A stretch of 64,000 bases of DNA from Spirochaetota bacterium (GTDB lineage: Bacteria > Spirochaetota > Spirochaetia > DTKZ01), in assembly GCA_026418195.1 (NCBI GenBank), contig JAOABU010000095.1, positions 17,964 to 81,963 on the forward strand, written 5' to 3'. The position numbers and the translations under genes are program-made. The notes under the pieces were generated by a model. It saw nothing but the letters and a program-made list of their open reading frames with translations, was not told the origin of the DNA and did no database searches. This document shows positions 60,614 to 64,000 of the stretch, piece after piece (the stretch's first letter is position 1; every line of letters begins with the position of its first letter).

Positions 60614-60643
60614 TTGACAGAGATTTAGCCCTGTTGGTATAGT
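60614..60643 (+). promoter_or_regulatory. Near-consensus sigma70 promoter TTGACA-18-TATAGT for the tRNA gene
   Basis: Perfect -35 and 5/6 -10, ending about 17 nt before the tRNA 5' end. Confidence 0.65.
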
Positions 60644-60659
60644 TCCTATGCTTTTCTAC

Positions 60660-60732
60660 GGTGGCGTAGCTCAGTCGGTAGAGCAAGCGGCTCATATCCG
60701 CTTGGTCAGGGGTTCAAGTCCCTTCGCCACTA
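60660..60732 (+). tRNA. tRNA-Met(CAU) (elongator-type or lysidine-modified tRNA-Ile2). CCA not encoded. G1·U72 closing pair.
   Basis: Hand-folded cloverleaf: acceptor GGTGGCG/CGCCACT, D-arm GCTC-AGTCGGTA-GAGC, anticodon arm AGCGG-CTCATAT-CCGCT (anticodon CAT), variable loop TGGTC, T-arm AGGGG-TTCAAGT-CCCTT. Lacks the initiator-specific features (C1·A72, 3 G-C pairs in the anticodon stem). Confidence 0.8.
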
Positions 60733-60742
60733 AAACGAACCA

Positions 60743-61453
60743 TTATAGGTTGGGCGGATTCCCCAAAGTTTCACCTCGGATTCGACAGGGAACTCCTTTT
60801 TGTTGAAACTGATCCTTCACCTCCTGCAGGAAAGAATAGGGATAGGGGGTTACCCTGCGCCCATAGTCGGGATCGAGGACATGATGCACTCGTACTCCTG
60901 TAAGAACTACTTGCATGGCTCCCTTTAAATGGGTTGCCCATTCTCTAGCATCGGAAAGGTCAAAGATTTCCGGCGCTACGGTAATGCGAAACTCGTGAGG
61001 TAGCCCTAAACGAATGAGAAGGCGGGCCGATTCCCGTACTATCGTGCCTGTTTCTTTCCTCCCTCCCACCAGAGAATATTTCTCGGGAGCGGTTTTTATA
61101 TCCATGGCAATGTAATCCGGGCGAAGCGTTTCGAAGACCTCCGGCTTGGTTCCGTTGGTATCTACCTTTACCCTATACCCTATCGCTTGGATATCCTTGA
61201 TTAAATCTTGCAATCCGGGAACTAGGAGGGGTTCTCCACCAGAAATACAGACCCCCTGTAGGATGGATCTCCTCTTCTCGAGGAACCTAAGGATTGCTTC
61301 CCAACTCTCCATCCCTTCTGGTTCCGGGCCTTCCACCAGTTCTGGATTGTGGCAGTAGGGACATCGTAGATTGCATCCCCGTGCAAAGAGCACAGCGGAT
61401 ACGAATCCCGGATAATCGATGAGACTCGTCTTTTCTAATGCGAATCGGACCAT
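60743..61453 (-). CDS. nrdG: Anaerobic ribonucleoside-triphosphate reductase activating protein (radical SAM)
   Basis: CNLRCPYCHNPE radical-SAM cluster motif near the N-terminus. About 235 aa. Confidence 0.85.
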   Translation of the reverse strand: MVRFALEKTSLIDYPGFVSAVLFARGCNLRCPYCHNPELVEGPEPEGMESWEAILRFLEKRRSILQGVCISGGEPLLVPGLQDLIKDIQAIGYRVKVDTNGTKPEVFETLRPDYIAMDIKTAPEKYSLVGGRKETGTIVRESARLLIRLGLPHEFRITVAPEIFDLSDAREWATHLKGAMQVVLTGVRVHHVLDPDYGRRVTPYPYSFLQEVKDQFQQKGVPCRIRGETLGNPPNL

Positions 61454-61914
61454 TGGATCGATAGTCGAGGTCGGAGATCCTCTAGTTGATCCACCGTATG
61501 GGCCTCAATAATGGGCCGACCATTCCTGTCGAAGAAGAGTACTGTAGGAGTCGAAAGGATCTGATACGTTTTTGCTTCCGACAGTCCCTCCTCCGTATCC
61601 ACGTCCACTTGTTTCCCAGAAATGGGAAGTTGAGAAACATACTCTTTCACGGGCGGACAGTTAGGACATGTCTTCCGATAGAAGTACCGGTATTCGGCAA
61701 CTTCTCGAGGAGCTTGCATTTCTGGATTTTTCTCCTTCGGAGGATCAAACGTTACTCGCAATCTGTATTCTTCTTTTTTCCCTTTGTTCCAGTTTCTTAG
61801 GGAACGGTAGTAGCCCACAATACGGGTGTACACTTCGCATTCCGTTCCTTGTACCGATTCCATTTGAGCTCGCAGTAGGGCGAGTTCTGCTTCTATTTCC
61901 TGTAGGGTTCTCAT
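61435..61914 (-). CDS. Glycyl-radical module of class III RNR (YTRIVGYY...WNKGKKEE) fused to a thioredoxin-fold CPNC domain; separate ORF in-frame with nrdD
   Basis: Residues about 25-55 match the NrdD C-terminal glycyl-radical signature (R-x-x-G-Y-x7-(F/W)N-x-GK-x-EE). The C-terminal half has CPNC, a cis-Pro TP, and VLFFD. Own RBS GGAGGAG 7 nt upstream of the ATG. Confidence 0.7.
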   Translation of the reverse strand: MRTLQEIEAELALLRAQMESVQGTECEVYTRIVGYYRSLRNWNKGKKEEYRLRVTFDPPKEKNPEMQAPREVAEYRYFYRKTCPNCPPVKEYVSQLPISGKQVDVDTEEGLSEAKTYQILSTPTVLFFDRNGRPIIEAHTVDQLEDLRPRLSIQWSDSH

Positions 61915-61932
61915 GCTTGTACTCCTCCACGT

Positions 61933-63960
61933 TTATTTAGCGTTGATCAAAATCAATTCCCGTTCTTTCTCTAAGTCCCTGATCTTCCGTTGCAGGGCTT
62001 CCTTTAATTCCGTTTCGCACTTGGGGCAGGTCATGTGTTCTCCTGAAAGGTACCCATGAACAGGGCAGATAGAGAAGGTTGGGGTGATGGTGAAATACGG
62101 GATACGGTAGTTTTCCGCTATCGCCCGTACCAGATTCCTGCATGCTCGCCAATCCTCGATAGCTTCCCCAATGAAGGCGTGGAATACAGTTCCTCCCGTA
62201 TATTTTGTCTGGATTTCTTCCTGATGATCCAGAGCATCGAAGATGTCCATACGGTAGGTTACCGGAATTTGGGTAGAGTTGGTGTAGTAGGGTTCCCGTT
62301 CACCTGCGGTGATGATGTCGGCAAATTTCTCTTTATCATGTTTTGCCAGTCGGTACGAAGTGCTTTCGGCAGGAGTAGCCTCCAGGTTGAAAAGGTCTCC
62401 TGTATCGGTTTGATAGAGTACTAATCGCTCCCTCATATGATCCAGAATCTCAAGGGTGAACTGTTTTCCTTCAGGCGAAACGATGTCTTTACCTAGGAAG
62501 TTCAGCAAGCACTCGTTCATCCCGCAAATCCCAATAGTAGAGAAATGGTTGTTGAGGGTTTTCAAGTACCTCCTTGTGTAGGGGAAGAGCCCTGCTTCCA
62601 GGAGCCGACTGATCACTTTTCGTTTGATCGTGAGGGATTCGGCAGCTAAATCCATCAGATGATCCAACCTCTGGAAAAAGTCCCTTCGAGAGTCCGCTAA
62701 ATACCCGATTCGGGGTAAATTGATGGTTACCACACCGATGGATCCGGTGAGCTCATCTGACCCAAAGAGCCCTCCTCCCCGTTTCCGCAACTCTCGTTTA
62801 TCCAGTTGCAACCGACAGCACATGGACCGGACGTCACCGGGCCGAAGGTCTGAATTGATGAAATTCTGGAAATAGGGAGTTCCATACTTGGCAGTCATTT
62901 CGAAAAGTAAACGAGCATTCTCGCTTTCCCAATCAAAGGTGCGGGTGATGTTGTAGGTTGGGATGGGGTATTGGAATCCCCGTCCATTGGCATCTCCTTG
63001 GAGCATCAGTTTGATAAAAGCCCGGTTGATCATGTCCATCTCTTTTTGGCAATCACCATAGGTAAACGTAGCAGGTTTTCCCCCTACGATGGCGGGCTTA
63101 TCCTGTAGATCTTCTGGTACTGTCCAGTCCAGTGTGATGTTGGTGAAGGGAGCTTGGCTTCCCCATCGGGATGGGGTATTTACCCCAAAAACGAAGCTTT
63201 GGATGCATTGGGTCACTTCCTCCTCATCCAATCCATCCGCCCTCACGAACGGGGCGAGGTAGGTGTCGAAGCTGGAGAACGCCTGTGCCCCTGCCCATTC
63301 GTTCTGCATGATGCCCAGGAAGTTCACGATCTGCTGAATCAACGTGGAAAGGTGACGCGCCGGTCTTGAGGTGATTTTGTCAGGCACTCCTCCCAGTCCT
63401 TCCTCTATGAGCTGACGCAACGACCAGCCGGCACAGTACCCAGAGAACATGGAGAGATCGTGGATGTGAAAATCTGCGTTTCGATGAGCTTCCGCAATGG
63501 GTTCGGGATAGATGTTCTTCAGCCAATAATTCGCTGTGATGGTACCTGAGTTGTGGAGAATGAGACCTCCCAGTGAAAAATTAACATTCGCATTCTCATT
63601 CACCCTCCAGTCCGTCTGGTTCAGGTATCCATCCATCGTACTGTTGATGTCCAGCATCAATTTCTGCGTATCCCGCATCACCTCATGCCGTGCCCGATAC
63701 AGGATGTACGCTTTGGCGATATCTACCTGTTTTGCTTCGATCAGGACGGTCTCCACTAGATCCTGTATTTCTTCTATGGCGGGGGCAGAGTTTGGATGTC
63801 TGCCCTTCATGAAATCCACCAGTTTCTTCTCTACTTGCCGGGTTAATCCTTCCGCTAGGTCCGTATCTTCCTGGTTCCGCACTGCTCGAATGGCCTTGTG
63901 GATAGCGTTGAAAATCTTCTCCCGGTTGTACTTTTCCAGAGTCCCGTTTCGTTTTACCAC
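61933..63960 (-). CDS. nrdD: Anaerobic (class III) ribonucleoside-triphosphate reductase catalytic subunit, ending after the Zn-ribbon and lacking the glycyl-radical motif
   Basis: N-terminal ATP-cone (VKRNGTLEKYNREKIFNAI), catalytic core, and C-terminal CPVH...CPKC Zn-ribbon. No R-x-x-G-Y motif about 16 residues after the last Cys. Stop TAA at 61933-61935. Confidence 0.85.
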   Translation of the reverse strand: MVKRNGTLEKYNREKIFNAIHKAIRAVRNQEDTDLAEGLTRQVEKKLVDFMKGRHPNSAPAIEEIQDLVETVLIEAKQVDIAKAYILYRARHEVMRDTQKLMLDINSTMDGYLNQTDWRVNENANVNFSLGGLILHNSGTITANYWLKNIYPEPIAEAHRNADFHIHDLSMFSGYCAGWSLRQLIEEGLGGVPDKITSRPARHLSTLIQQIVNFLGIMQNEWAGAQAFSSFDTYLAPFVRADGLDEEEVTQCIQSFVFGVNTPSRWGSQAPFTNITLDWTVPEDLQDKPAIVGGKPATFTYGDCQKEMDMINRAFIKLMLQGDANGRGFQYPIPTYNITRTFDWESENARLLFEMTAKYGTPYFQNFINSDLRPGDVRSMCCRLQLDKRELRKRGGGLFGSDELTGSIGVVTINLPRIGYLADSRRDFFQRLDHLMDLAAESLTIKRKVISRLLEAGLFPYTRRYLKTLNNHFSTIGICGMNECLLNFLGKDIVSPEGKQFTLEILDHMRERLVLYQTDTGDLFNLEATPAESTSYRLAKHDKEKFADIITAGEREPYYTNSTQIPVTYRMDIFDALDHQEEIQTKYTGGTVFHAFIGEAIEDWRACRNLVRAIAENYRIPYFTITPTFSICPVHGYLSGEHMTCPKCETELKEALQRKIRDLEKERELILINAK

Positions 63961-64000
63961 GAATCGGACACCTACAGATGGGGCCTCCTCTCGAATACCG

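Follow-up and report, generated by a model that had tools for sequence, protein, structure and literature searches.

To our knowledge, in all glycyl-radical enzymes characterised so far the radical glycine and the barrel are part of a single chain, and the loop of GrcA, which serves pyruvate formate-lyase (PFL), is the sole one known to act in trans. Class I ribonucleotide reductases (RNRs) keep the radical on a second subunit. Here we describe a locus in a stretch of 64,000 nucleotides (nt), called the window below, from a Spirochaetota bacterium (GenBank assembly GCA_026418195.1, contig JAOABU010000095.1, positions 17,964 to 81,963). In it the gene nrdD for a class III (glycyl-radical) RNR stops short of the glycyl-radical loop, and the loop is encoded by the next, small gene. 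This operon very probably encodes a two-polypeptide class III reductase, in which the loop would act in trans.

According to a June 2026 review, no spare-part protein is known outside the formate lyases, and whether other glycyl-radical enzymes have any was left open (PMC13450708). Glycyl-radical enzymes are cleaved by O2 at the radical glycine (PMC2795772; PMC13450708). For the class II pair NrdJa/NrdJb, an extra folded element that ends the first piece was proposed to mediate re-association (PMC9669993). The NrdD2 subtype of class III enzymes has a third cysteine and a glutamate, and its active-site disulfide is reduced by thioredoxin, according to PMC4493059 and PMC9669993. Formate-dependent enzymes make use of a finger-loop methionine (PMC9669993). 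In one class I RNR, the radical subunit carries a fused redoxin that was shown to be its reductant, and the survey in the same paper lists one grx::nrdD fusion only and no split NrdD (PMC6187632). No account of a split class III reductase came up in a full-text literature search; an earlier mention is possible.

Results

Division of the reductase between two genes

Three tightly packed genes lie on the minus strand of the window in the order nrdD, small open reading frame (ORF) and nrdG, and neither promoter-like nor terminator-like sites were found on that strand between them. The nrdD gene (61933..64000), for the large (catalytic) subunit of a class III reductase, matched positions 1-530 of the 562 in Pfam NRDD (PF13597; E 9e-182, 606 bits versus a cut-off of 26.2). 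It also scored above the cut-offs of NCBIfam NF006126 (1096 bits, cut-off 548) and TIGR02487 (492 bits, cut-off 326). The ORF ends at profile position 530, and the glycyl-radical motif is absent from it. After C648, the last putative Zn ligand, there follow a 27-residue tail, ETELKEALQRKIRDLEKERELILINAK, and a TAA stop codon (61933-61935).

The rest of the profile was found on the small ORF (61435..61914, minus strand, ATG at 61912-61914), which encodes 159 residues. Its residues 24-56 matched NRDD positions 531-562 (E 6e-8, 32.3 bits versus the same cut-off), and it matched the C-terminal ends of NF006358, TIGR02487 and NF006126. The loop itself (residues 23-57, 61744..61848) reads GTECEVYTRIVG34YYRSLRNWNKGKKEEYRLR, and Gly34 (61813-61815) is the predicted radical site. 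Between the two genes is an 18-nt spacer of six sense codons (61915..61932), within which a ribosome-binding site (RBS), GGAGGAG (61922-61928), stands 7 nt 5' of the ATG. The third gene, nrdG (60743..61453, minus strand), encodes a radical-SAM activase and shares 19 nt with the end of the small ORF; it matched TIGR02495 NrdG2 with 166 bits (cut-off 131) as well as Radical_SAM and Fer4_12. The NRDD barrel, the finger-loop and beta-A cysteines and an adjoining cognate NrdG, as they belong to a class III NrdD, were all present, and the loop expected on the same polypeptide as the barrel was intact on the next ORF.

A first-pass annotation of the window, made from the letters alone, had reported that nrdD stops right after the Zn site and a tail, with the radical motif moved to the small ORF, and had named alignment of both ORFs to HMMs as a check. 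That alignment found no complete glycyl-radical domain in the large ORF and one in the small, in agreement with the report. The ATP-cone and core named there were likewise found, as were a Zn-ribbon-like site and a length of 675 residues counted from the GTG at 63960 (61933-63960). The gene is probably longer and cut by the window edge, because the frame has no stop between 63961 and 64000 and a 95%-identical homologue (P0269, 697 residues) starts 22 codons 5' of this GTG, with similarity continuing into 63961-64000. The true start probably lies ~26 nt past the window, which would make the protein ~697 residues long.

Residues of the large subunit

The large subunit has an ATP-cone, the allosteric on/off domain, at residues 2-93 (63682..63957; PF03477, E 3e-20) and the NRDD barrel domain with the active-site residues at 122-651 (62008..63597). 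Its closest solved structure was T. maritima (Tm) NrdD (4coi, E 6e-40). The alignment placed the beta-A cysteine C176 (63433-63435) on Tm C125, the finger loop M380-C-C-R383 (62812-62823) on Tm SCCR 328-331, and E527 (62380-62382) on Tm E495. These residues are invariant among relatives, whose large subunits are 75-96% identical. With active-site residues defined as in PMC9669993 and the NrdD2 subtype as in PMC4493059 and PMC9669993, the NrdD2 residue set was complete: the CC at 381-382, E527 on Tm E495 and the beta-A cysteine.

The putative Zn-ribbon-like site C632-x2-H635 ... C645-x2-C648 (62017..62067) consists of three cysteines and one histidine, all invariant in the family. It was observed that the site in this clade is Cys-x2-His ... 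Cys-x2-Cys and not four cysteines, and that the histidine is invariant in split relatives and in the unsplit relatives described below.

When the large subunit was modelled alone with AlphaFold2 (AF2), the segments of lowest confidence included residues 170-177, 381-403 and 530-562 (approximately 63430-63453, 62752-62820 and 62275-62373). Among them are the strand with the beta-A cysteine and the finger loop, which face the glycine loop in solved NrdD structures. Low confidence at these places could reflect a missing partner, or simply a shallow alignment.

The N-terminal regulatory region was varied in the family. The Brucepastera NrdD has 869 residues with a Zn_ribbon_NrdR plus ATP-cone add-on (L001 2355-4964), a Treponema locus has a separate NrdR-like gene overlapping the nrdD start (L002 2362-2835), and Spirochaeta thermophila has a 108-residue ORF containing only an ATP-cone just 5' of nrdD (L086 2661-2987).

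Conservation of the split among relatives

Relatives of the small protein formed 1396 clusters at 90% identity (E ≤ 1e-3), the best 120 of which were all 148-216 residues long and all had an NRDD match. An exhaustive HMMER search over 1.84 billion representatives (50% identity) gave 272 matches at E ≤ 1e-10, and the best 150 of these were all 98-320 residues long. A scan of one genome per species found at least 587 stretches encoding a relative of the small ORF; the 80 kept for analysis were nearly all labelled Spirochaetota. Species among them were, for example, Treponema pectinovorum ATCC 33768, T. bryantii, T. berlinense and Brucepastera parasyntrophica, and relatives of the small-subunit gene occurred in many host-associated Treponema genomes.

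The 80 loci were fetched, and the 72 with both genes readable were taken as the analysable set, to which the counts that follow refer. The small gene adjoined a truncated nrdD in 72 of the 80, and nrdG came next in the loci where this was looked at. In the finished genome of Brucepastera parasyntrophica the order was an nrdD with ATP-cone and NRDD and no glycine loop, then the small gene, then nrdG. The same order was found in a Treponema metagenome-assembled genome and in Spirochaeta thermophila DSM 6578, and nrdD lay directly 5' of the small ORF in Treponema pectinovorum ATCC 33768 (L050). None of the large subunits in the analysable set had a glycine loop. The split, both helices described below and the glycine motif were conserved over the set.

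The window shares with L003 and L004, its two closest relatives, an arrangement in which the two ORFs are in one frame with a single TAA and six sense codons between them, as would be expected if stop-codon read-through or recoding joined them into one NrdD chain. The first-pass annotation had listed this reading and had pointed to the shared frame. The frame was as stated and carries no meaning: the small ORF was in the nrdD frame in 23 of the 72 loci, which is the one-in-three chance level, so the coincidence of frames in the window is accidental. The distance from stop to start ranged from -4 to +230 nt, and the stop and start codons overlapped in eight loci (by -4, as ATGA, in six and by -1 in two). 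All three stop codons were used for nrdD (TAA in 42, TGA in 26, TAG in 4). An RBS-like 4-mer preceded the small-ORF ATG in 63 loci, a methionine start stood 30 residues before R31 in 43, and stand-alone small genes also exist (see below). Read-through as a family mechanism was thus ruled out by the statistics of frame, gap and stop codon, and read-through of any kind is extremely improbable.

The other artefact to be weighed was an ordinary nrdD broken by faulty sequencing or assembly, or one that had recently become a pseudogene; the unusual position of the stop is all that speaks for it. The same architecture recurred in assemblies made independently and in cultured strains with finished genomes, the large subunits are as similar to each other as given above, and the small subunits, at 40-55% identity, have all catalytic motifs intact. 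These independent assemblies and cultured-isolate genomes excluded the explanation, and the chance that it applies is negligible. We regard it as nearly certain that the split is real and conserved.

Helices at the break

The tail of the large subunit (residues 649-675, 61936..62016) is an amphipathic C-terminal helix and the proposed docking helix. Positions +8, +12 and +15 after the last cysteine, the last Zn ligand, were leucine or isoleucine in 100% of the loci, position +22 was hydrophobic in 75%, and E+3, E+18 and R/K+19 were nearly invariant. The proposed partner is an amphipathic helix at the N-terminus of the small subunit (residues 2-22, 61849..61911), with hydrophobic residues at -27, -24, -20, -17, -13 and -10 from R31, in 3-4-3-4-3 heptad spacing, and an invariant glycine at -8. 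In the AF2 models, which are single chains and give per-chain information, the tail formed one helix at residues 646-674 (predicted local distance difference test, pLDDT, 91-93) and the small subunit an N-terminal helix at residues 4-19 (pLDDT 82-87).

A chimeric query, in which the last 87 residues of nrdD were joined to the small ORF, was covered to 87-99% by single-chain relatives. Nine unsplit relatives (P0388, P0204, P0389, P0392, P0393, P0394, P0395, P0396 and P0398) read C-x2-C-G/Q/H-x2-3-(T)EVY.RIVGYY, so that the Zn site runs straight into the glycine loop with neither helix, and they continue into the same C-terminal CPxC thioredoxin-like domain. A further unsplit relative, represented by the two fragments P0390 and P0391, has a 25-residue insert exactly at the break point. 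The unsplit relatives are known only as contig-end fragments; their loci include L083 76-1032 and L084 2-748. The genes for P0388 and P0390 are followed by nrdG, and the former adjoins spirochaete flagellar sheath (FlaA) genes.

The break falls exactly between the last Zn ligand and the Gly-Thr ahead of the radical loop, two points that are 2-3 residues apart in the unsplit relatives. Compared with the nine unsplit relatives, the tail helix and the N-helix were found only together with the split. The helices are limited to broken chains and stand at the site of the break, which is the best argument available for their holding the two pieces together. Since the anchor points are so close in the unsplit forms, the helices would have to pair antiparallel, and we infer that such a hairpin forms in trans close to the Zn site.

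The first-pass annotation had favoured a two-piece enzyme that docks through paired helices, on the grounds of an RBS for the small ORF and helical segments on both sides of the break, and had suggested a search of related genomes for the same split. The RBS is present in the window and usual in the family; the helical segments are family-wide, with heptad-spaced hydrophobic residues and predicted helices; and the search found the split throughout the analysable set. The two-piece reading is supported by the joint conservation of split, helices and glycine motif.

Radical loop and C-terminal half of the small protein

A Pfam scan of the small ORF (E ≤ 0.1) returned NRDD, thioredoxin-type families and two unrelated marginal matches (CCDC53 and DUF6779), and no match to PF01228 (Gly_radical). 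A phmmer search against solved NrdD structures gave weak thioredoxin matches only, the glycine loop being too short to score alone. The C-terminal half had gone unremarked in the first-pass annotation, and its fold is an addition to it. AF2, run on a 30-sequence alignment, predicted a beta-alpha-beta-alpha-beta-beta-alpha order at residues 74-152 (61459..61695) with pLDDT >93, and Foldseek matched this domain to thioredoxins with probability 1.0 and a target-normalised TM-score of ~0.55-0.65. The phmmer alignment placed C83-P-N-C86 (61657-61668) on the thioredoxin CGPC site and T-P-T, with P123, on the cis-Pro loop. The C-terminal half is, by these models, a thioredoxin fold in which the CxxC stands at the start of helix 1 and a cis-Pro loop is present.

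In the 30-sequence alignment (45-87% identity), R31, I, V, G34, Y, Y, R, N41, W, N, G45, K, E49 and R53 were invariant, and so were C83, P84, C86 and P123. The linker between the two parts (residues 58-73, 61696..61743; predicted disordered, pLDDT 53-60) varied in length by up to ~75 residues. Both the radical loop and the redox pair are under selection, as both are invariant while the length of the linker varies. Across the analysable set the identity of the small subunit falls to about 40%, with the catalytic motifs all kept.

Stand-alone copies on mobile elements

One cluster of small subunits, P0064 (148 residues, 176 member sequences), is encoded by stand-alone genes inside a conjugative type IV secretion cluster. 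Loci of this type were L017 (4938-5441), L021, L013 and L087-L090 (6001-6447). The neighbours were TrbI, a Big_2 surface protein of 1616-1916 residues, a NikA-like protein, a VirD4/TraG coupling protein, VirB11, TrbC and VirB3, and there was neither nrdD nor nrdG within 6 kb. P0064 retains the N-helix, the glycine loop and CPNC. A protein search of the plasmid collection with the small ORF gave no match. A radical-subunit gene that travels alone fits a part working in trans.

That the small gene can travel without nrdD would also suit a small protein that serves some other, full-length NrdD as a regulator or, in the manner of GrcA, as a facultative spare part, with the truncated large subunit inactive or in another role. 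The truncated large subunit is, however, under strong purifying selection with its active-site residues all invariant, the small gene adjoins it throughout the analysable loci with nrdG next where looked at, and the tail helix and N-helix occur only together with the split. A facultative role is therefore improbable. With no glycine loop in the large subunit, the small protein appears to be obligate and not a back-up.

Neighbouring tRNA gene

A tRNA-Met (CAT) gene on the plus strand (60660-60732) is convergent with the end of nrdG. It is preceded by a sigma-70-like promoter with an 11/12 match (TTGACA, 18 nt, TATAGT, extended-10 TG; region 60614-60732).

Discussion

In the proposed two-piece reductase, the large subunit would bring the ATP-cone, a ten-stranded barrel with the active site, the Zn-ribbon-like site and the 27-residue amphipathic helix. 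The small subunit would bring a three-heptad amphipathic helix, the Gly34 loop, a flexible linker and a thioredoxin fold with CPxC. Paired beside the Zn site, the helices would hold the small subunit on the large one and let the glycine loop enter the barrel opposite the finger-loop cysteines. NrdG would abstract a hydrogen from Gly34, and the loop in the barrel would pass the radical to a finger-loop cysteine. Each time a turnover is complete, the linker-borne thioredoxin-like domain would reduce the active-site disulfide by NrdD2-type chemistry, and a cellular reductase would then recharge the domain. From the sequences we propose the docking, the formation of the radical and the role of the thioredoxin-like domain. 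More speculatively, a loop cleaved by O2 on a 17-kDa protein could be swapped without remaking the ~78-kDa large subunit; this repair-by-exchange rationale is conceivable, and we consider it rather doubtful.

Several points weigh against this reading. The two-piece enzyme is deduced here from genes and predicted single chains, and RNR gene content was viewed at the nrdD/small-gene loci. Helix pairing and insertion of the loop are suggested by geometry and conservation. The heptad registers are compatible with both parallel and antiparallel pairing, and the charge covariation between tail and N-helix, which was above pairing shuffles (r = -0.68 and -0.60), was calculated with phylogeny not controlled and leaves the orientation unsettled. 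The matches of the small ORF to Thioredoxin_2, Glutaredoxin and related families were below the Pfam gathering score (19.1 versus 27). The MCCR finger loop keeps its methionine, so formate could still be the reductant and the thioredoxin domain might then have another role.

The last two points bear on the reductant. A tethered thioredoxin-like domain is most simply read as the enzyme's own reductant, since the class I redoxin fusion acts in this way (PMC6187632), and we think it probable, with some reserve, that the domain is the turnover reductant. It could instead guard the loop or the cysteines, aid assembly or serve NrdG while formate reduces the substrate, as the methionine found in formate-dependent enzymes (PMC9669993) and the weak thioredoxin-family scores would allow. 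The invariance of C-P-x-C and of the cis-Pro position, the complete NrdD2 set with its third cysteine and glutamate, and the presence of the same domain at the same place in the unsplit relatives argue otherwise, and such a role is unlikely. As those unsplit relatives have the domain, its link with the reductase is independent of the split.

Taken as a whole, the locus may represent the first natural glycyl-radical enzyme with its radical on an obligate, exchangeable subunit. Such a subunit would be activated by NrdG, docked through a hairpin in trans, equipped with its own thioredoxin-type reductant and swappable after O2 damage, and mobile DNA may be a source of, or a competitor for, the host's radical subunit. 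For this full combination our doubts slightly outweigh our confidence.

If true, a widespread natural two-chain class III reductase would answer the question raised in the review about parts beyond the formate lyases (PMC13450708). Activation by NrdG, insertion of the loop, and O2 damage and repair, which are entangled in single-chain enzymes, would become separable, and the radical loop would be open to labelling, mutation and titration on a 17-kDa protein. The two-subunit placement of the radical would be a convergence with the class I reductases. For host-associated Treponema, the supply of dNTPs near oxic-anoxic boundaries is relevant to growth. Annotation is also affected. No NCBIfam model names the small protein, public names for it are inconsistent (thioredoxin, glutaredoxin, hypothetical protein, ribonucleotide reductase), and its large partner is labelled as an ordinary NrdD.

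Comparison with known systems

By analogy, the closest functional counterpart of the small protein would be GrcA/YfiD, a family to which it does not belong, given the lack of a PF01228 match. Both are small, separate proteins with a glycyl-radical loop; GrcA, once its cognate activase has acted on it, serves in trans in the barrel of the large enzyme, as is proposed here. GrcA copies the C-terminus of PFL (Pfam Gly_radical), whereas the loop here is that of NrdD. PFL keeps its own loop and GrcA replaces it only after cleavage by O2, whereas the large subunit here has none, and the small protein, unlike GrcA, has a dedicated docking helix and a thioredoxin-like domain. The comparison with GrcA in the first-pass annotation therefore holds for the separate radical-loop protein and not for a back-up role, and the thioredoxin-like domain goes beyond it.

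In architecture, the nearest analogue is the split class II reductase NrdJa/NrdJb of the Pseudomonas aeruginosa type, which also has its catalytic chain on two adjacent genes, the second with a C-terminal functional module. It differs in being class II (B12-dependent), and its second piece is an IscU-like and Zn-finger re-reduction module with no radical site. The NrdD2 enzymes of Neisseria bacilliformis and Thermotoga maritima share the barrel family, the double-cysteine finger loop, the beta-A cysteine and the Tm E495-equivalent glutamate. Unlike the enzyme here, which keeps the finger-loop methionine, they are single chains with an in-chain glycine loop and use a free thioredoxin.

The Grx::NrdB protein of Facklamia ignava resembles the small subunit in joining a redoxin to the radical-bearing RNR subunit, and there the redoxin was shown experimentally to be the reductant (PMC6187632). 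It is a class I protein, in contrast, with an N-terminal glutaredoxin on a ferritin-like subunit. The unsplit NrdD-thioredoxin relatives have the same Zn site, glycine loop and CPxC domain as the two proteins of the window, with nrdG as a neighbour in P0388 and P0390, but on one polypeptide that has neither of the helices.

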